From positions 2,400,001 through 2,464,000 of the forward strand of contig OZ242195.1 of assembly GCA_965205975.1 (NCBI GenBank): a DNA stretch of 64,000 nucleotides. The letters are read 5' to 3'. The notes below the pieces were generated by a model that ran no database searches, was not told the DNA's origin, and saw nothing but the letters and a program-made list of their open reading frames with translations. A program made the position numbers and the translations under genes. The first letter of the stretch is position 1. Each line of letters begins with the position of its first letter. This document shows, piece by piece, positions 37,503 through 46,091 of the stretch. Source of the stretch: Candidatus Latescibacterota bacterium (GTDB lineage Bacteria; Latescibacterota; UBA2968).

Positions 37503-37684
37503 TCTAAAAATTGGTAAAAAAAGGGTGTGAAATTGGCAATGCATTTTTCTACCTTGACGGATGCACAAACATGTAGCATTATTGAATTGAGAACAAGGTC
37601 AAAATGTAATGGAGGAACTGCTGATCTCTGCACGCTCATCGGTGAGTAACAAATAAGTCAATATCAAGGTAGGAGAGTAAAATA

Positions 37685-38251
37685 ATGAATGACAACGTAG
37701 AAGTGCTCAATTCGGTCGGGTTGGACGACATGACCCAAAAAGCGATCAAACTGGTGGCTAACGAGATTGAAGAGAAGATTCGGGGAAACTTGCAAAGGGC
37801 GTTACACGAAGCTGCCGTAAAGGAACTGTCTGAAGTCAAATTTAATGTGCAGATGATTGAGAACAAGATCGCGGAAGTAGGGAAACGCCTATTAGCAGAG
37901 CATAACACTCGAATTGACGAAGTAATTTCCAAGCAAGATGAAGTGGCTACCAAACAACTGAATGACAGTGAGGTGATCAAAAGCACGCTTGCTGAAGTTG
38001 AAAAACATTTGCTATCGGAGTATCGCACTCGGATTGACAAAGTGATTGCCAAACAAGACGAAGTGGTTGCCAAGCATCAGGATGTGCGTGAGTTGATCGA
38101 AAGCACATTTGCAGAAGTTGAGAAACGCTTGCTATCAGAGCAACGCACTCGAATTGACGAAGTGGAAGGGAAGTTAGTAAGAACACAGCAGGCATTATTG
38201 GGGCTGATGGTAGTCACACTATTAGCTACCATCACCGGAATTTTTCTTTAG
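37685..38251 (+). CDS. Hypothetical coiled-coil protein with 40-aa repeats and a C-terminal TM anchor
   Basis: About 2.5 copies of AEVxKxLLxExxTRIDxVIxKQDEV; terminal hydrophobic helix ALLGLMVVTLLATITGIFL. AGGAG SD. Confidence 0.75.
   Translation: MNDNVEVLNSVGLDDMTQKAIKLVANEIEEKIRGNLQRALHEAAVKELSEVKFNVQMIENKIAEVGKRLLAEHNTRIDEVISKQDEVATKQLNDSEVIKSTLAEVEKHLLSEYRTRIDKVIAKQDEVVAKHQDVRELIESTFAEVEKRLLSEQRTRIDEVEGKLVRTQQALLGLMVVTLLATITGIFL
37871..38164 (+). repeat. Degenerate 120-bp tandem coding repeat (~2.5 copies)
   Basis: GCxGAAGT...CACTCGxATTGACxAAGT recurs from 37871, 37991 and 38111. Confidence 0.85.
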
Positions 38252-38276
38252 CAATTTAGGGTTGGGAGATTGAAGG

Positions 38277-40799
38277 ATGCGACATAAACTAACTGGCCAT
38301 GATCATGCGGCACTGCTGATCGCCCATATAGCTTGTACCGACAAACAACTGCATAATAGAGAAATAAAGCAACTGGCGACGTTTCTGAAGAATGACGCTT
38401 CGGATGTGGCAACGCAAGAGATCAATAAGATTTTGGTAGAGGCAGATGACGCTATCGACTTGACCTCGGTACTATCTGCGGTTCCTGTCACGGAGCAAAA
38501 GCGTACGCTTGAAATAGCATTCCGCATGGCATACGCTGATGGACATCTCCATCTGGAAGAATCGACTTTGTTGAAGCAGATCGCCGGAAAATGGAACATT
38601 TCGACAGGAGGAATGAAGGCGATTGACGCCAAAGCGCGCTATGGCACCGCACACGAAGATGCAATAGTAAAGAAACCAACTTCGCCAGAGGCAAAGATCG
38701 TACAAACGCTCGACTTATTGTTTTCCAAAGGGTTGCTGAATGCTGTTGCAAAAGCCGACGGTGGCGTGTGGCAGCGCAAACTCAGGCGGCTACGCCATCA
38801 GGTATTATTTGCCGGACCGGAATATGCGGTAGCTGTGCAGCATTGCCGAGCGGTGGCTAAGCACGATTTCAAACGTATAGAGTCTCATCTGAAGCGGATC
38901 CAAAAAATGTTGGAAAACCTACAAACAAATTTTAGCAAGACAATTGTGAAGATGGATACCGGCTCTCAAAAGACAGGCAACGAAAAAAAGAAAGTATTGG
39001 ATTCCCTGCATGGGTTGCGAAACGATTTGTCCACAACACTTGCCGACAACGTGATCAAAACACGAGAGGGCCTCGCGGCAAAGCATCGTGCGCTACAATA
39101 CTTCACTGTGGCATTCATGGGAAAGACAAAAGCTGGCAAGAGTACCTTGCATGCGGTTATTACCGGCCAAGGATGGGATGAGATCGGCACTGGTAAGCAG
39201 CGTAAGACACGTCATAACCGCGTCTATGAGATTGATCATTTGCGGATCATTGATACGCCCGGTATTGGCGCGCCTGAAGCCGATGGGCGCACTGACGAAG
39301 AGATCGCCCTGAGTATTGTTGACGAGGCAGATATAATCTGTTTTGTCGTAACCAACGACAATCAACAAAAAGAAGAGTTTGAATTCTTGCAAACACTGAA
39401 GACAGCGGGCAAGCCGCTGGTGATTCTACTGAACTGGAAGAGTGGGCTAAATAGTTTAAGAAAATTGCGTGAGTTTATTCGCTATGCGGACGAGATTCTT
39501 TCCCCAAAACCAGTAGCTGATCCTCAATCAAAAAATGCCCGCGACGTAAGTGGACATTTGCGACGCATTCGCCGATACGCGTCCGAGTATTACGAGAACG
39601 ACTTCTTCGACATCATTCCAGTTCATTTCTATGCAGCGCAACTTGCCCGCACAGGTGAAAAGCCGGAGTTTGAGAACGAGTTGTACGATGCGAGCAAGGT
39701 AGAAGATTTTCTAAATTGCATTCGGATGGACATCCTTCGTGACGGTGCCATTCACCGATCGCAGACCCTACTTGGATCCACCGCCGGAAGCGTTGAGACC
39801 GTTAGAGATTGGTTAGAGGATAAAGCGACAGAACTCCATGATATGGCGACCGAATTAGAGAAAAGTCGGGACCGTCTTAAAAAAATTATGAGCAAGGCAG
39901 AATCTGAAGCCAAGCGGGAAATACACGGTCACATCAAGTCGTGTTTTCAACAGTTGCGAGAACAAGAGGTGCCGAAATTTGCCGAGCGTCATTATAATAC
40001 AAGATCTGAGCGATTGGGCAAAGAATGGCAGAATTGGTTAAAGAAAAGTAATCAGATCGATGCGTTGCAATCGGAAATACAGGCGACCTACAGCTACTTT
40101 GAGGACAAAGTGCAAGAGGGACTCGAAGAAGTTGGGAAGGATCTCGAAATGATGGCAAGATTGAAAATGGAACGACTAACATTTGACGGCCCCCTGCTGG
40201 AGTCTTCGTGGCAAAACTATGTTCGTATCGGGAGTGGCCTCGTAGGATTGGCTGGAACAATAATAGTATCATTAGCATTAGCCTCGAATCCAATTGGCTG
40301 GGTACTCATGGGTATTGGTGCTATTGGAGGGATTGTTGCAAGTCGTCTTCAATCTAAAGACACAAAGCGCCGTAAGGCTATAGCCAAGATCAGCGACGAG
40401 TTGTGTAAACAACTCAATTCACAGGAAGGTAAGGTGCTGAAGGCGCAAACCAAAGAATTTGAGAAGTACTCAAAAGAAATACGCCAAGATGTGTTTCAAC
40501 ATTTTGCGTTGCTAAATGAGTCTATAAAAGCAATTGGATCCTTATGTAGAACTGGAAAAGATAATCTTGGCAGAGAGATTGATAGCATTAACCGGGCGTA
40601 TGCCTCGCGCGTGCTGCAATGGTTGACACAGGCTCCTCAGTCAGAGATTACCATGGAAGAGCAGGTGATTGCCGTAAATCGACAGTGTGGCAACCGAATG
40701 GAGATTCGCACATCCCTCGTAAAACAGCAAATACGGCCATGGGAAGATGTGCGTCGCGCTTTGCAAGAAGATTTAGAGATTTCTTGGGGTAGCAAATAA
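38277..40799 (+). CDS. TerB-domain-fused dynamin-like GTPase with C-terminal membrane hairpin
   Basis: N-terminal TerB pattern (IACTDKQLHNRE; MAYADGHLHLEE); coiled coil; G1 GKTKAGKST, G3 DTPG, G4-like NWKS; helical stalk; Gly-rich hydrophobic hairpin GLVGLAGTII...NPIGWVLMGIGAIGGIV. Confidence 0.8.
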   Translation: MRHKLTGHDHAALLIAHIACTDKQLHNREIKQLATFLKNDASDVATQEINKILVEADDAIDLTSVLSAVPVTEQKRTLEIAFRMAYADGHLHLEESTLLKQIAGKWNISTGGMKAIDAKARYGTAHEDAIVKKPTSPEAKIVQTLDLLFSKGLLNAVAKADGGVWQRKLRRLRHQVLFAGPEYAVAVQHCRAVAKHDFKRIESHLKRIQKMLENLQTNFSKTIVKMDTGSQKTGNEKKKVLDSLHGLRNDLSTTLADNVIKTREGLAAKHRALQYFTVAFMGKTKAGKSTLHAVITGQGWDEIGTGKQRKTRHNRVYEIDHLRIIDTPGIGAPEADGRTDEEIALSIVDEADIICFVVTNDNQQKEEFEFLQTLKTAGKPLVILLNWKSGLNSLRKLREFIRYADEILSPKPVADPQSKNARDVSGHLRRIRRYASEYYENDFFDIIPVHFYAAQLARTGEKPEFENELYDASKVEDFLNCIRMDILRDGAIHRSQTLLGSTAGSVETVRDWLEDKATELHDMATELEKSRDRLKKIMSKAESEAKREIHGHIKSCFQQLREQEVPKFAERHYNTRSERLGKEWQNWLKKSNQIDALQSEIQATYSYFEDKVQEGLEEVGKDLEMMARLKMERLTFDGPLLESSWQNYVRIGSGLVGLAGTIIVSLALASNPIGWVLMGIGAIGGIVASRLQSKDTKRRKAIAKISDELCKQLNSQEGKVLKAQTKEFEKYSKEIRQDVFQHFALLNESIKAIGSLCRTGKDNLGREIDSINRAYASRVLQWLTQAPQSEITMEEQVIAVNRQCGNRMEIRTSLVKQQIRPWEDVRRALQEDLEISWGSK

Positions 40800-40827
40800 A
40801 CTAACACCAAAGGAAGAGGGTAGATCA

Positions 40828-42564
40828 ATGGCATTGCAAACCGTGAAATTCACTGTGGCGGAACGAATGGCAGAACTGGAAGCAAAGGCGGAACGTTTTC
40901 GGACCTTAGTTAAGACAGCAGAAAGCATAGATGCGAAGACACTAATCAAGGCATTTGATGAGGAATGGAACCGAGAACGCAACTTATTGTCAGTTGGGTT
41001 TATTGGACCGTACAGTGCTGGTAAATCAACGACGATCGCGGCACTTACGGGACGGGACGACATCGCCATTGATGCCGACATTGCGACGAGCGAAACCACT
41101 GAATATGACTGGAACGGTATCAAGTTAATCGATACTCCCGGGTTGTGGACGGAGCGCAAAAAACACGATCAGATAACCTACGATGCTCTGCGCCAGGCTG
41201 ATTTATTGATATTTACCTTGACCTACATGCTGTTTGATAAGGCGACCGTCGATCACTTCAAGGAGTTGGCATTTGAGGAAGGGTATCAGAACAAAATTCT
41301 GCTGTTAATCAACAAGGTGAATGATGAGGCAGGAAACATAAATGAACGGATCGAAGCCTATCGCGACAGCATTGACATAGCACTTAAGCCACATGATGCA
41401 CAGACGTTCACGCAATGTTACATCGATGCTCGCGATTACTTAGACGGGATTGATGAAAGTGACCAAGAGTTGATTGATGAAAGCCGTTTTAATGCGTTCG
41501 TCAAAACCTTGAACCATTTTGTGGACCGACAAGGAAAGATGGGGCAATTGGAAACACCAGTGCAGATACTAAAGACCCATATTGACCTCGCGTTGCAGCG
41601 ACTGGAGCAAGCCAAAGGAGAGGTAGCCGTATATCCCGAGATCCTCAACCGAGTCACCCGCGAGGTCAGAAATGGTCGTCATCAGTTTCGAGCAAAGGTG
41701 CGCGTGATCATTGCCGATATGGTTGCATCTGTTGCGCGACAGGGAAGCCTGATGGCCTCTGGTGTCGGTACCGAGGATTCGAATGTTAGCGAAGCCGAGA
41801 GTAATAAGGCTATTGAGGAAGCCTGCGAGAAGGCACAGCAGGGGATATCTGAGGTCATTAAAGACATTATCTCTAACCTCCAAGAAGAAGTTAAGGAAAT
41901 TTGTACCAGCAATCTGGCGGATACTTATTTTTCGCCCGCGCTGACACACGACGCGGTATCCAGTCCAAACCTGACCGATACCGAAGGCATTGCGACGCGC
42001 CGCCGGCAATGGGAGAGTCTGTCGCAAATTGCAGAGGGGGTCGGTGTCGAATTAGCGAAATTGGCTCAAGGTGCTGGTGCTATGGGTAAAGGCGGTCTAT
42101 TAGCCGCTGGACAGGTAAGAGGGGCTCCCCTGCATAAAATTGTACTCCAGGGAGGTAAGGCTTTTGGCATGAAGTTTAAGCCGTGGCAGGCCGTCAACGT
42201 AGCAAAAAACATCGGCAATGCAGCAAAATTTCTCGGTCCGGTAGTGCAGGGGGTCGGGATAGGTTTGGACATATTGCAGATGCGCAAGGAAGATAAGCAG
42301 TCAAAGAGGATTTCGGAGGCGAAACTCAAAGTTATGGCTCAGTTCAACGAGATTGGACAGAAACTAAAAAGAGAGTTTGAAGATCAGTTGCGGGAAGTTG
42401 AAAAACAGACCTTTGACCTAATCGCTGATGAGGTAGAAAATGCACAAAATGCCTATCAAAAAGCTAACACGACAAATGATGAAACATCTAAGGCACTCTT
42501 AGAATTGCGCGATGAGTTGAGCGCACTCCTAAAGGCTGACCGCAAGGCTGTAATTTTGGCCTAA
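40828..42564 (+). CDS. LeoA-type dynamin-like GTPase
   Basis: G1 GPYSAGKST, G2 T, G3 DTPG, G4 NKVN; long helical region; KFKPW followed by a Gly-rich amphipathic segment as in the LeoA/HP0731 family. Confidence 0.82.
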   Translation: MALQTVKFTVAERMAELEAKAERFRTLVKTAESIDAKTLIKAFDEEWNRERNLLSVGFIGPYSAGKSTTIAALTGRDDIAIDADIATSETTEYDWNGIKLIDTPGLWTERKKHDQITYDALRQADLLIFTLTYMLFDKATVDHFKELAFEEGYQNKILLLINKVNDEAGNINERIEAYRDSIDIALKPHDAQTFTQCYIDARDYLDGIDESDQELIDESRFNAFVKTLNHFVDRQGKMGQLETPVQILKTHIDLALQRLEQAKGEVAVYPEILNRVTREVRNGRHQFRAKVRVIIADMVASVARQGSLMASGVGTEDSNVSEAESNKAIEEACEKAQQGISEVIKDIISNLQEEVKEICTSNLADTYFSPALTHDAVSSPNLTDTEGIATRRRQWESLSQIAEGVGVELAKLAQGAGAMGKGGLLAAGQVRGAPLHKIVLQGGKAFGMKFKPWQAVNVAKNIGNAAKFLGPVVQGVGIGLDILQMRKEDKQSKRISEAKLKVMAQFNEIGQKLKREFEDQLREVEKQTFDLIADEVENAQNAYQKANTTNDETSKALLELRDELSALLKADRKAVILA

Positions 42565-42645
42565 ATGACTCTGGTTTGAATGCAAATATTACAAATTTTG
42601 TTTCACCAAAGTAGCTGTAAACCGCTTGGAGCAAGGACAAACAAT

Positions 42646-43986
42646 ATGCCATATTTGATGCAAACAAATAAAGGCGAGGAACTCAACAGACTTTATCCAG
42701 AAGATCGCCCTGTAAACGACTGGTATCGTTTTGTTTTGTCATACCCACCACATCTTGTCAGGCATTATATTTCGCGTTTTGAACTCGATGAAAAAAGTTC
42801 TGTTTTAGACCCCTTTTGTGGCACGGGTACAACTTTAGTAGCCTGTAAAAAACGGGGGATAAAGAGTGTTGGTATCGAGGCTAATCCCGTTGTCAAATTC
42901 GCCGCAAGTGTTAAAACTGATTGGAATATAGACCCAGACGTTCTTATTGATCATGCAGAAATGGTTGCGTCAGAAACAATAGAGCTACTTTTGTCGGAGG
43001 GTGTTGAGGACGACCCTCTCTTTCAATCTCTGGATAAAGATGAAACCACAGAGCTTCGGACACTTACCCCAGACCAGGAAAAGTTAATTATTACAAACTC
43101 AATCAGCCCCAAACCTTTACATAAGGCTTTGGCTCTTATAGAAAAAATCCACGAATTAAAGCACAACAGATGTTATGATTATGAACGTTTAGCACTCGCA
43201 AAACAGTTGGTTTATACAGCGAGCAATTTGCGTTTTGGACCAGAAGTTGGCGTAGGCAAAGCAAAACCCGACTCGCCTGTGGTTGGCCCCTGGTTAGCTG
43301 GTATTAGAAGTATGTGTGAGGATTTAATCCAGGTCAGACCCAATGCCCATATTCCCTCAGTCGTTCATTTTGGCGATGCACGCAATATGAGACAGTTTTT
43401 AGAACCTCAATCTATCGATGCTGTGATCACATCGCCGCCGTATCCGAATGAAAAGGATTATACCCGAACAACGCGCCTGGAGTCTGTATTATTGGGATTT
43501 ATGACTGATAGACACGACCTGAGAACTCATAAAAATAACTTAATAAGATCCAATACTCGAGGTGTTTACAAAATAGATAATGACAAAGACTGGGTAGCAA
43601 AATTCGATAGCATACAAAAATTGGCAAAAAAAATAGAAAGGCGTCGGATCGAATTAAACAAAACATCGGGATTCGAAAAATTATACGCTCATGTTGTTCG
43701 ACATTATTTTGGAGGCATGACTCGGCATTTAGAAACCCTGAAACCAATTTTGAAACCAGGTGCTTGTCTTGCCTATGTCGTTGGCGATCAGGCTTCTTAT
43801 TTTCGCATTCTAATCAAAACGGGAAACTTATTGGCAGAGATTGCGGAGCGATTAGGTTATAAAGTCATAGATATCGATTTATTTCGAAAAAGATTCTCGA
43901 CTGCAACTCAGCAATATATCAGGGAAGAGGTTGTTCTACTCCGCTGGGAAGGTCAATCTAAGGGTCAAAAATATGCCACCAAATAA
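42646..43986 (+). CDS. DNA amino-methyltransferase, probably N4-cytosine, alpha motif order
   Basis: DPFCGTGTT (motif I) before ITSPPY (motif IV); YVVGD. AT-richer than its flanks. Confidence 0.88.
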   Translation: MPYLMQTNKGEELNRLYPEDRPVNDWYRFVLSYPPHLVRHYISRFELDEKSSVLDPFCGTGTTLVACKKRGIKSVGIEANPVVKFAASVKTDWNIDPDVLIDHAEMVASETIELLLSEGVEDDPLFQSLDKDETTELRTLTPDQEKLIITNSISPKPLHKALALIEKIHELKHNRCYDYERLALAKQLVYTASNLRFGPEVGVGKAKPDSPVVGPWLAGIRSMCEDLIQVRPNAHIPSVVHFGDARNMRQFLEPQSIDAVITSPPYPNEKDYTRTTRLESVLLGFMTDRHDLRTHKNNLIRSNTRGVYKIDNDKDWVAKFDSIQKLAKKIERRRIELNKTSGFEKLYAHVVRHYFGGMTRHLETLKPILKPGACLAYVVGDQASYFRILIKTGNLLAEIAERLGYKVIDIDLFRKRFSTATQQYIREEVVLLRWEGQSKGQKYATK

Positions 43987-44779
43987 CGATCCACGCTATT
44001 CACAGATTATTGCGAAAATCTTCGAAGCAAAATTTCGAGAAGGTAGAAGAGCAATTCGTTTTGAAAGAACCGAGATTGTCAATGCAGCGAGAGATTTGGG
44101 AATTGAATTACCAAAAAATCTGGGAGATATCATTTATTCATTCAAATTTCGCAACCAACTTCCCGATTCTATAAAAGAAACAGCACCGGACGATAAAGAA
44201 TGGGTGATAGTAAATCGGGGAAGGTCTCAATACGCATTTGAATTGAAAGGAACATCGAGGATTTTGCCAGATCCAATGCTGACAATCACCAAAATACCAG
44301 ACGCAACCCCTGGTATTGTTGCTAAATATTCTTTCGATGATGAACAAGCTCTATTAACCAAACTCCGCTACAATCGAATGCTCGACATTTTTACTGGCAT
44401 CGCCTGCTATTCTTTACAGAATCATTTACGCACAACTGTCCCCGGAGTTGGGCAAATTGAAACGGATGAAATCTACGTTGGAATAGACAAAAAAGGGGTT
44501 CACTATGTCTTTCCCGTTCAGGCAAAAAGTGGTAAAGACACGCTTGGTGTTGTCCAGATTGAACAAGATATAGCATTATGTAATCACCGATTTCCCACTT
44601 TGATTTGCAGAGCAATTGCTGCTCAGTTTTTACAAGAAAATGTGATTGCGCTATTTGAATTAGAGTTAATAGATGGCGAAGTGAAAAAAGCCTCAGAAAG
44701 GCACTATCAGTTGGTCCCTCAAGAATATCTTACGGATGAAGAATTGATGAACTATCGTCTGAGATTTGATGACCCATAG
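43973..44779 (+). CDS. Putative type II restriction endonuclease (PD-(D/E)xK fold, D...QxK variant)
   Basis: Overlaps the MTase stop by 14 bp; EQAL...QIETDEIYVG...PVQAK catalytic-like pattern. Confidence 0.7.
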   Translation: MPPNNDPRYSQIIAKIFEAKFREGRRAIRFERTEIVNAARDLGIELPKNLGDIIYSFKFRNQLPDSIKETAPDDKEWVIVNRGRSQYAFELKGTSRILPDPMLTITKIPDATPGIVAKYSFDDEQALLTKLRYNRMLDIFTGIACYSLQNHLRTTVPGVGQIETDEIYVGIDKKGVHYVFPVQAKSGKDTLGVVQIEQDIALCNHRFPTLICRAIAAQFLQENVIALFELELIDGEVKKASERHYQLVPQEYLTDEELMNYRLRFDDP

Positions 44780-44810
44780 TGCGTCGCGACGTAAGCCATA
44801 CCCCATATGG

Positions 44811-44840
44811 ATTGCGGCTCAAAACCATGCCGCAATGACA
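44811..44840. repeat. REP-like palindrome
   Basis: ATTGCGGC-TCAAAACCAT-GCCGCAAT-GAC; no U-tract. Confidence 0.45.
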
Positions 44841-44902
44841 ATCGCAAAATCGCCTTTTTCAAGATGCATAGTTATTAAGGCCCTGAACAACAGGAGACGA
44901 AA

Positions 44903-45643
44903 ATGGACGCGGGAGACAGAGCGGCTGTTGAAGCCGCATGGAAGAACGGCGTAGGCGTCTTGCACAACTTGCTCTCGCAAGATGAACTGGATACAATCCG
45001 CCGGGAGTTAGAACAGGCGTATCTGGATTTGGATATGGGACCGGGTGAACCCGGCAGCCGGGACAGTCTGCGAGATGAACCACTGTTAAATTATTCGGCT
45101 CTGGGCAGCTTATTTTCCCATCCTCGCATTTTGGGGATCGTATCGGCGATCCTGGATGAGCCGCGGCCTTTTCTCTTGCAAATGAAAACCAACCGGTACA
45201 CGCCAAAACACAAAGGCGTGGGACGGCACTCAGACGGCAGCCCGACGGAACTCGCCGCGCCCTTTCAGTGGCTGGCAACAATGATTTATCTGGACGATAT
45301 CGACGTCAATTCCGGAGCGTTGACCTATGTGCCGGGCACGCATCTGTATCATTTTGCATCTGCGTGCGATCCGGGCCGCGTACTACCCACAAAAGAAGAT
45401 ATTCAGGCGGGTCATTACATCCCAATCGACTTGAAAGCGGGCAGCGTCGTCTTTCGCGTACCAGAGGTCTGGCACGGCGTAGTGCCCATCCATCGGTTGC
45501 GGCGATATATCACGGGATTGTACACATCTCGCAAAAAGGGAAATACGCCGATCAAAGAGCGGATACAGGGGGTTCGGCAAAGCCGAAAGCAAATCCCGGA
45601 GACATCCATACCCGAGCACGTCAGGGAATACTGGCAGTATTAA
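44903..45643 (+). CDS. Phytanoyl-CoA dioxygenase (PhyH) family Fe(II)/2-oxoglutarate dioxygenase
   Basis: HSD...WHG facial triad; YLDD...GALTYVPGTH; LKAGSVVF. Confidence 0.88.
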   Translation: MDAGDRAAVEAAWKNGVGVLHNLLSQDELDTIRRELEQAYLDLDMGPGEPGSRDSLRDEPLLNYSALGSLFSHPRILGIVSAILDEPRPFLLQMKTNRYTPKHKGVGRHSDGSPTELAAPFQWLATMIYLDDIDVNSGALTYVPGTHLYHFASACDPGRVLPTKEDIQAGHYIPIDLKAGSVVFRVPEVWHGVVPIHRLRRYITGLYTSRKKGNTPIKERIQGVRQSRKQIPETSIPEHVREYWQY

Positions 45644-46091
45644 TCAATCGAATGCCGGTCTGCGTATAATCCCCATCCGGCGTAATTTGCATCGTCGCCC
45701 GGGGACCGTGTTCATCGTACCATCCAATTGGACGCACCAACTCTTTCTGCCACCCATACCGCCACAGCGACAGCTTGTACGCCTCCACCGCGTGTACCCT
45801 GAACTCTGACGGCTGTCCAGACTGTACCCACTTTGGCCACATATATCCCAGCAGTCCATCGGTCAACAGCCGGAACTGATAGGGTTCCCTGGTCGGTATC
45901 TTAAGCGGTACTGTTTTGAATCCATAACCCGACTTGTAAAGTGTCACGCTATACTTGCCGGAAGGCAAATCCGCATAAACCGCGCCGGTCGCCCGTGAAC
46001 GCGCCTCAAATGACCCCGCTTCGCCTTCAAACTCCAGCAGCACCTCCGGCACTGCTACATATCGTTCATCGCTCACATATCCAATCAGCAT
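45621..46091 (-). pseudogene. 3'-truncated gene, N-terminus of a N,N-dimethylformamidase-beta-like family protein
   Basis: MLIGYVSDERYVA...GYMWPKWV...LWRYGW...DEHGPRATMQITPDGDYTQTG matches, from recall, the start of much longer proteins. It ends shortly afterwards, overlapping the convergent PhyH gene. Confidence 0.6.

Follow-up and report, generated by a model that had tools for sequence, protein, structure and literature searches.

A TerB-type Eleos dynamin pair and a small membrane-anchored repeat protein at a variable site of a Candidatus Latescibacterota genome

In a genome of a Candidatus Latescibacterota bacterium (GCA_965205975.1, contig OZ242195.1) two genes for dynamin-like GTPases are preceded by a gene for a small membrane-anchored protein and followed by a restriction-modification (R-M) pair. 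This arrangement raises the question whether the five genes form one new defence system, as the initial annotation had proposed, or whether a known system stands here beside separable neighbours. The window, i.e. the whole stretch of DNA that was analysed, comprises 64,000 nucleotides (positions 2,400,001 to 2,464,000 of the contig, forward strand), and the positions given below count from its first letter. The five open reading frames (ORFs), called A, B, C, M and R, all lie on the plus strand and have the length, spacing and motifs described earlier. The core of the locus is a known system, a TerB-type Eleos, and the unfamiliar part is the small membrane-anchored rod protein A, a candidate accessory tether.

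The dynamin pair and its TerB branch

Judged by their sequences, B (38277-40799, plus strand, 840 aa) and C (40828-42564, plus strand, 578 aa) are an Eleos-family dynamin pair, a TerB-fused LeoBC followed by LeoA. B matches the PADLOC profile LeoBC with an E-value of 1.7e-94 (residues 182-806, profile positions 6-582 of 601) and C the profile LeoA with 8.1e-93 (profile positions 8-552 of 559); the two matches cover 96-97% of these profiles and follow each other in the canonical order. The sole PDB match of C is LeoA (4aur), in an alignment that includes the KFKPW paddle region. As annotated before, C is a 578-aa GTPase with KFKPW (residues 449-453); it has no membrane-spanning segment.

The combination of TerB, GTPase and membrane hairpin first described for the 840-aa protein was found in all its parts. 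The TerB domain occupies residues 9-112 (38301..38612, plus strand; Pfam PF05099, 39.8 bits versus a cut-off of 24.4), the GTPase domain residues 277-386 (Pfam), and hydropathy places the membrane hairpin or paddle at residues 648-691 (40218..40349, plus strand). With the family profile of B, matches were obtained to both halves of the TerB structure 2ou3 (E 4.6e-4) and to Era-type GTPase domains, and the paddle region aligns with residues 544-668 of the bacterial dynamin-like protein (BDLP) 2j68 (E 0.0016); a dynamin fold is predicted for B. Both P-loops are intact (G282-K288-S289 in B, G60-K66-S67 in C). In B none of the 56 aligned homologues departs from the G1 motif, Thr311 of the switch (G2) or the G3 motif DTPG, and in C, where DTPG is also present, G1 to G4 are invariant in 46 of 46 rows. 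Equally invariant in 56 of 56 aligned B homologues are four acidic residues of the TerB domain, D22, E29, D88 and E95, which form a paired D-x(6)-E. These TerB residues have a putative metal-binding role. A preprint describes TerB as a predicted binder of small molecules (10.64898/2026.10.19.760177).

The TerB fusion is a common and widespread branch of the Eleos family. A scan of genome contigs with B as a single protein gave no match, but the same scan with an alignment gave 313 confirmed loci, the best 80 of which, from cyanobacteria wherever a taxon is given, are the cyanobacterial set used below. A B homologue was called in 79 of these 80 loci and begins in the TerB domain in 78; LeoA follows 3' of TerB-LeoBC in 71, the other nine loci stopping within about 0.9 kb of leoBC. 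Among 8000 scored candidates there are 163 B homologues at E ≤ 0.001. A TerB profile cut from our own alignment matches 108 of 120 B homologues among the matches listed, including some labelled Marinobacter and Exiguobacterium, a count which is partly circular since 56 of the homologues built the profile. The ESM Atlas likewise holds clusters with the TerB-LeoBC architecture. The novelty of the core was therefore overstated at first: B and C match an existing system model over almost their whole profiles, and only A, as shown in the next section, does not. No paper describing the TerB-LeoBC fusion was found, although it may be mentioned in Anantharaman et al. 2012 or in Table S5 of Millman et al.

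The distribution is patchy, as is typical of accessory systems. The TerB form is present in 1 of 168 genomes of its own phylum; among 301 cyanobacterial genomes, with the one used as centre included, at least 13 have it, and several cyanobacterial copies are broken by stops. Most genomes of the genus lack the TerB-LeoBC/LeoA pair, and in five other genus genomes Eleos pairs that lack both TerB and an accompanying A lie elsewhere than at this site.

Two cyanobacterial genomes encode three single-chain fusions of LeoBC and LeoA of 1398-1711 aa (L170:5458-9705, L171:5060-9256 and L172:4520-9655), of which those of 1415 and 1398 aa include TerB and that of 1711 aa does not. These fusions support the view that B and C act as one unit. 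The TerB-less fusion carries about 450 other N-terminal residues which look TPR-like by eye. Further LeoBC homologues (P0090, P0093, P0097, P0120) are fused to a C-terminal actin-like domain, to a second N-terminal dynamin domain or to ankyrin repeats ahead of TerB.

Gene A and its occurrence

Gene A (37685-38251, plus strand) encodes 188 aa, which divide into a conserved head (about residues 1-58), a stalk of 33- or 40-residue repeat units and a membrane helix at residues 170-188, the sole hydrophobic segment, situated at the very end of the protein. The repeat appears in the DNA as a 120-bp tandem repeat (37906-38164, plus strand; 2.2 copies, 79% match) and in the protein by self-comparison, where 43 of 148 residues are identical at a lag of 40, with lag 20 as the next best. 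The initial annotation of A as a tail-anchored protein with a 40-aa repeat is thus confirmed, as is its position as a membrane-anchored coiled coil ahead of a TerB-bearing pair related to Eleos. The predicted structure is a single helix over residues 15-187 (173 residues; mean pLDDT 89.6 and pTM 0.37, for a monomer with a shallow alignment), and the hydrophobic period is 3.64-3.67. Homologues of A span 141-228 aa and differ in length mostly by 7, 33 or 40 residues with head and membrane tail conserved, as would be expected of a coiled-coil stalk that is held in register.

PADLOC, Pfam, NCBIfam and further homology scans gave no family match for A, the best PADLOC E-value being 0.005. Its PADLOC matches to ZorA, AbiEi, SngA and LeoBC (E 0.005-0.04; SngA 0.015) were rejected as coiled-coil noise, and Atlas look-alikes, with scores below 0.9 and low recognition, gave no lead. 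The family is tiny: it comprises 13 clusters, has five matches among 1.84 billion representatives and occurs in 2 of 168 genomes of the phylum; metagenome contigs scanned with the alignment of A gave no match. Gene A is therefore lineage-restricted and, as its distribution described below shows, optional.

Where the neighbours of A are known, it always accompanies dynamins. In three assemblies the accessions of A and B follow each other directly, and in two of these M and R come next in the same order, and a single 76.6-kb contig of a sponge metagenome (run X6) spans all five genes. Circumstantially, eight of nine other A-bearing contigs of at least 9 kb equal a B-bearing contig in size; this pairing covered all 13 clusters of A with one contig, the longest, per protein.

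One genome of the genus (G004) carries at the same site three other dynamin-like genes (596, 746 and 587 aa), then an A homologue and then the same R-M pair. The triplet is recognised by Pfam Dynamin_N, its second gene matches PDB 5owv, and its Eleos match is weak or none. The A homologue of G004 falls into a separate three-member clade with 100/100 support (repeats omitted; bootstrap not fully settled), and it is 53-63% identical in the non-repeat parts, versus 94% for M and 99% for R. The other two members of this second clade lie on contigs equal in size to nuclease-bearing ones. The three-dynamin cassette has no name and a weak or no PADLOC match, both in G004 (L024:10253-16067) and at L134-L143. 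At E ≤ 1e-8 its middle gene is matched in 15 of the 168 phylum genomes, and its third gene bears variable add-ons such as ankyrin repeats, a helix-hairpin-helix or an FGE-sulfatase-like domain.

Small membrane proteins other than A occur near some cyanobacterial pairs. One family, which starts with F-C-G-R-W-G-C, is encoded between leoBC and leoA in 4 of the 80 loci (L045:11607-11981, L066:10491-10781, L070:11493-12002, L071:11590-11907) and nowhere else in them; a Pfam scan of two members gave no match. Tail-anchored proteins with internal repeats are encoded 34-39 bp from dynamin genes at L038:13286-13975 and L176:11229-11918, two copies in one genome with leoA split by a stop in both, and at L171:4619-5020. 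They are related neither to gene A nor to one another (L038 and L171 are not alignable). Tail-anchored genes seemed overrepresented at the flanks (4 of 161 versus 3 of 779 slots, p 0.019), but this excess was rejected, as one of the four was a duplicate and one not tail-anchored; after de-duplication 2 of 161 slots versus 3 of 779 control slots remain, which is not above chance.

The variable site and the restriction-modification pair

The arrangement of the five genes was borne out as first described, with gaps of 25 bp (A-B), 28 bp (B-C) and 81 bp (C-M), an overlap of 14 bp between M and R, whose starts were taken as the ATGs 3' of a ribosome-binding-like stretch, and metabolic-type flanks. 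The flanking genes code for a peptidase C26 on the minus strand and a PhyH protein on the plus strand. PhyH is co-oriented with the five genes, and in insert-free genomes it lies directly 3' of the promoter region that here precedes gene A. This region contains a promoter-like site, TTGACG-17-CATTAT (37554..37582, plus strand), in the host flank common to all occupied site versions. It is conserved in an alignment of seven site versions, the two empty ones showing variants. A scan with the promoter consensus found 7 matches versus 12.7 expected by chance and, because there are fewer matches than by chance, is no evidence by itself; the site was retained for its conservation alone. It likely drives whichever cassette is present, and the five genes likely form one transcript. 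Contigs from an RNA library (run X19) map on B, C, M and R, but contigs cannot demonstrate transcription.

The swappable dynamin cassette A-B-C has the approximate limits 37640..42612 (plus strand): in R-M-only genomes the flank matches end at about 37632-37638 and resume at 42613, and a contig of run X20, in which the dynamin cassette is missing, joins 37618 to 42632. The whole variable interval (37605..44888) is missing in the empty allele, in which phyH adjoins the left flank with nothing in between; a contig of run X5 joins 37514 to 44889. Among 20 genomes of the same genus the site is empty in 11, holds the methylase without dynamins in five, a different cassette in one (G004) and is rearranged or unresolved in three. 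In the five methylase-only alleles the promoter region is followed immediately by the methylase. The full, the R-M-only and the empty state of the site are also seen among contigs from public runs. Neither the ORF list nor a Pfam scan revealed an integrase or transposase gene at the site here. The limits of the cassette, just behind the promoter-like region and just before the start of the methylase, suggest replacement by recombination via the flanks; cassettes would be swapped by recombination with the conserved left flank on one side and the methylase gene on the other, behind the host promoter. The site, of which an empty, an R-M-only and two distinct dynamin versions exist, is a clean natural experiment.

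M (42646-43986, plus strand, 446 aa) is a Type II DNA methyltransferase and R (43973-44779, plus strand, 268 aa) a Type II restriction endonuclease; both are separable neighbours of the dynamins. M matches PADLOC MTase_II (E 1.7e-42) and Pfam N6_N4_Mtase, with motif I at residue 55 and SPPY at residue 263, and R matches PADLOC REase_II (E 1.4e-119, profile positions 4-259 of 260), which upholds the earlier assignment as SPPY methyltransferase and endonuclease; standing side by side, they make up a Type II R-M system by model matches. Relatives of R, 56% identical, lie on enterobacterial plasmids of 4-6 kb. In methylase alleles the nuclease is intact in G006 and broken or lost in G012, G001 and G011, while G013 ends at the contig edge. 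In the dynamin-free alleles L145, L146, L150, L151 and L153 the nuclease is broken or deleted in several and the methylase mostly intact. Nuclease loss with the methylase retained is the usual pattern of R-M decay.

Beyond the five genes, a short repeat that can form a hairpin lies between R and phyH (44808-44847; fold z-score -2.6); it resembles repetitive extragenic palindromic (REP) elements and has many copies across genomes of the genus. Just after phyH (window 45646-45650) relatives hold about 1.15 kb of extra DNA, and the minus-strand ORF at 45621-46091 has 156 aa here versus 530 aa in G004. As the relatives are longer there, a deletion truncating this ORF appears to be present here.

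Possible function and relation to known systems

The published Eleos is a two-gene operon found near defence genes in 60% of cases (10.1101/2022.05.11.491447). For the TerB branch we compared neighbours (ORFs of at least 170 aa, about 13 kb of flank) at 30 of the 80 cyanobacterial loci, comprising 243 proteins with the last batch of two Microcoleus loci omitted, with 102 control proteins from 16 hand-picked 14-kb windows of five of the same genomes. Defence genes were those with a PADLOC E-value ≤ 1e-15 and a best stretch of at least half the profile; FtsH, PolA, TnpB, intron RT (reverse transcriptase), ABC ATPase, kinase and cyclase were dropped as paralogues. Six TerB loci were positive (L047, L054, L061, L062, L066, L090), or seven if a TIR-NACHT gene recognised by Pfam at L036 is counted. 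Applied to TerB-less Eleos of the same genus, this rule finds defence genes beside it in three of five genomes, and the TerB pair at its own locus adjoins the R-M pair at a variable site. One TerB-less pair (L026:9934-13819, G016) is part of a type III CRISPR-Cas locus, flanked on one side by a CARF-HEPN gene with a group II intron and on the other by PrimPol-cas1.

We lean, with reserve, towards the reading that B and C are an Eleos pair which remodels or patches the inner membrane in phage infection, with A as an optional rod that possibly recruits them and with the R-M genes as independent occupants of a cassette-swapping site. B would hold the inner membrane by its hairpin and C, which lacks a membrane segment, would join B; fused homologues and published mutants suggest that both work as a unit to which B gives the membrane grip. 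The inactivity of LeoA alone and the proposal of heterodimers by Michie et al. fit such joint action. TerB, the putative sensor of the initial annotation, may with its four invariant acidic residues bind a metal or small ligand and gate assembly on membrane leak. GTP-driven assembly of B and C would remodel or patch the membrane during infection and, to judge from Eleos and DynA, may block large phages or delay lysis. A functional partnership of A with the dynamins is put forward tentatively: its conserved head might, speculatively, bind a dynamin while the repeat stalk sets the distance from the membrane, and in this way A would provide the soluble partner with another anchor of greater length.

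Several observations weigh against this reading. C reaches 89.9 bits with the NCBIfam LeoA model, far under its cut-off of 325 bits. The enrichment near defence genes is not seen for the cyanobacterial TerB pairs (6 of 30 loci versus 4 of 16 controls), the value of 6 of 30 being far under the 60% published for the family, and in several cyanobacterial groups the pair keeps a single location surrounded by housekeeping genes. Because this test, although small, shows no enrichment, our confidence in the TerB branch as a pure phage defence is lower. The same results agree with a TerB-LeoBC/LeoA pair that serves mainly in surveillance and repair of membrane stress (metal, oxidative or antibiotic damage), as DynA does, with phage protection as a side benefit and with R-M adjacent as the site accepts cargo. 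This is rather unlikely in our view, yet it gains from the stable housekeeping contexts, from the alternative three-dynamin cassette, for which just one of 10 other loci shows a defence-like neighbour, and from DynA, whose membrane surveillance is directed at antibiotics and phage alike (PMC8844932). It loses by the pair being rare, patchy, often broken and absent from most genomes of the genus, and by its close kinship to a family with shown anti-phage activity. Moreover, the neighbour test is small, with about 13 kb per locus and one Microcoleus locus, whereas 15 mostly Microcoleus loci, largely outside the neighbour sample, have an NB-ARC gene nearby.

As to A, points against a partnership with the dynamins are its lack of homologues in the 80 cyanobacterial loci and at 10 other loci holding the three-dynamin cassette or most of it, and the 17 contigs of the lineage of at least 9 kb that carry B, for which an equal-sized A contig is recorded in eight cases and none in nine. 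Furthermore, the copies of A are not independent, because all those with known context occupy one inherited site. The A-B-C order is thus not conserved across independent lineages, and of the three-component system with a dedicated tether in the initial annotation the presence of A ahead of B and C stands, while its standing as a system is unproven, the more so as A is once found with a different dynamin cassette. That same case could be turned round: A may be a general dynamin adaptor, the tail-anchored receptor of two unrelated dynamin systems at this site, and A-B-C a three-component variant in this lineage. We consider this doubtful. It accords with the company of dynamins in the three assemblies, the size-matched contigs and run X6, with the absence of A from the 11 empty and five methylase-only alleles, with the divergence of A in G004 while M and R hardly differ, and with length changes that preserve the coiled-coil register; the occurrence, in a few cyanobacteria, of unrelated small membrane genes within or next to the pair is suggestive. 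Both dynamin systems usually lack A, however, B has a membrane hairpin of its own, the layout of G004 could also have arisen if B and C were lost and the triplet was inserted upstream of the A that remained, and tail-anchored flanking genes in cyanobacteria are only two independent cases. Finally, the coupling of dynamins and R-M pair into one system of five genes, in which the dynamins back up R-M or are regulated by it, is largely refuted and in our opinion highly improbable. The five-gene order is repeated in two other assemblies and run X6, one transcript is likely, and the nuclease is intact here while broken or lost in several dynamin-free alleles; the repeated order, however, is that of one inherited site. 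R-M occurs alone in G006, the methylase occurs with a broken or unseen nuclease in G012, G013, G001 and G011, no homologue of M or R is found in the 80 cyanobacterial loci, relatives of the nuclease lie on plasmids as small as 4 kb, and the GC content at third codon positions (GC3) of M and R (0.33-0.35) differs from that of A to C (0.48-0.51).

Compared with known systems, the locus is closest to Eleos, a name introduced in bioRxiv 10.1101/2022.12.12.520048. Both share tandem LeoBC and LeoA with near full-length PADLOC matches and intact P-loops, and here an R-M pair stands beside them. They differ in about 180 extra N-terminal residues of LeoBC, which hold TerB and lie outside the model, in the extra tail-anchored gene upstream, and in the missing enrichment of the TerB branch near defence genes in cyanobacteria. 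Eleos protects B. subtilis against the jumbo phages AR9 and PBS1 only and needs both P-loops, and its mechanism was reported as not known (Millman et al., 10.1101/2022.05.11.491447); a phage test of the TerB branch was not found in the literature searched. The TerB branch gives four invariant residues to mutate. In LeoABC of enterotoxigenic Escherichia coli (ETEC) the gene order is equal and LeoA aligns with C including the KFKPW paddle (PMC4159319; 4aur), but LeoBC is split there into LeoC, which ends in its own membrane anchor, and LeoB, whereas LeoBC is whole here, carries TerB, and a separate gene gives the extra anchor. LeoA alone showed no lipid binding or nucleotide turnover, and heterodimers were proposed (Michie et al. 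2014, PMC4159319).

TerB in a putative membrane-surveillance role is shared with Shango and Bunzi (Millman et al.), in which it is not on a dynamin; a convincing match to a Shango or Bunzi component was not found here, SngA matching A only weakly (E 0.015). The DO-GTPase system (PMC7159879) was rejected, as both GTPases have DTPG and not the Walker B glutamate and the cassette has no three-domain GAP1 partner; the accessible main text of that paper does not mention TerB or dynamin. The cyanobacterial 'HSR1 clade' of PMC5827413, described as a dynamin-like gene with an HSR1-related gene downstream, might include pairs of the B-C type, although TerB is not mentioned in the accessible text.

For A no sequence relation to MFF or FIS1, tail-anchored dynamin adaptors of eukaryotes, was found. 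MFF has a coiled coil and repeats. The likeness to MFF and FIS1 (PMC9377713) is one of anatomy only, in that a tail-anchored protein accompanies a soluble dynamin; dynamin binding by A is putative. It is an unlikely, if attractive, idea that A is a bacterial tail-anchored dynamin receptor analogous to the eukaryotic adaptors recruiting DRP1, with a conserved head, a stalk tuned in 33- or 40-residue steps and two diverged versions kept by two unrelated dynamin systems which replace each other at one site. Should A bind the dynamins, it would serve a bacterial dynamin as a dedicated membrane receptor, and no such receptor is described in the literature as far as searched. With DynA (PMC8844932) and Nostoc BDLP (2j68) the pair shares two cooperating dynamin units, fused in DynA and in the three cyanobacterial B-C homologues, and the hydrophobic paddle of B that aligns with BDLP; the sequence families differ, and DynA is a housekeeping gene in contrast to the patchy accessory pair here. 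The natural single-chain TerB-LeoBC-LeoA fusions would bypass the failure to purify LeoB and LeoC reported for the ETEC proteins (PMC4159319).

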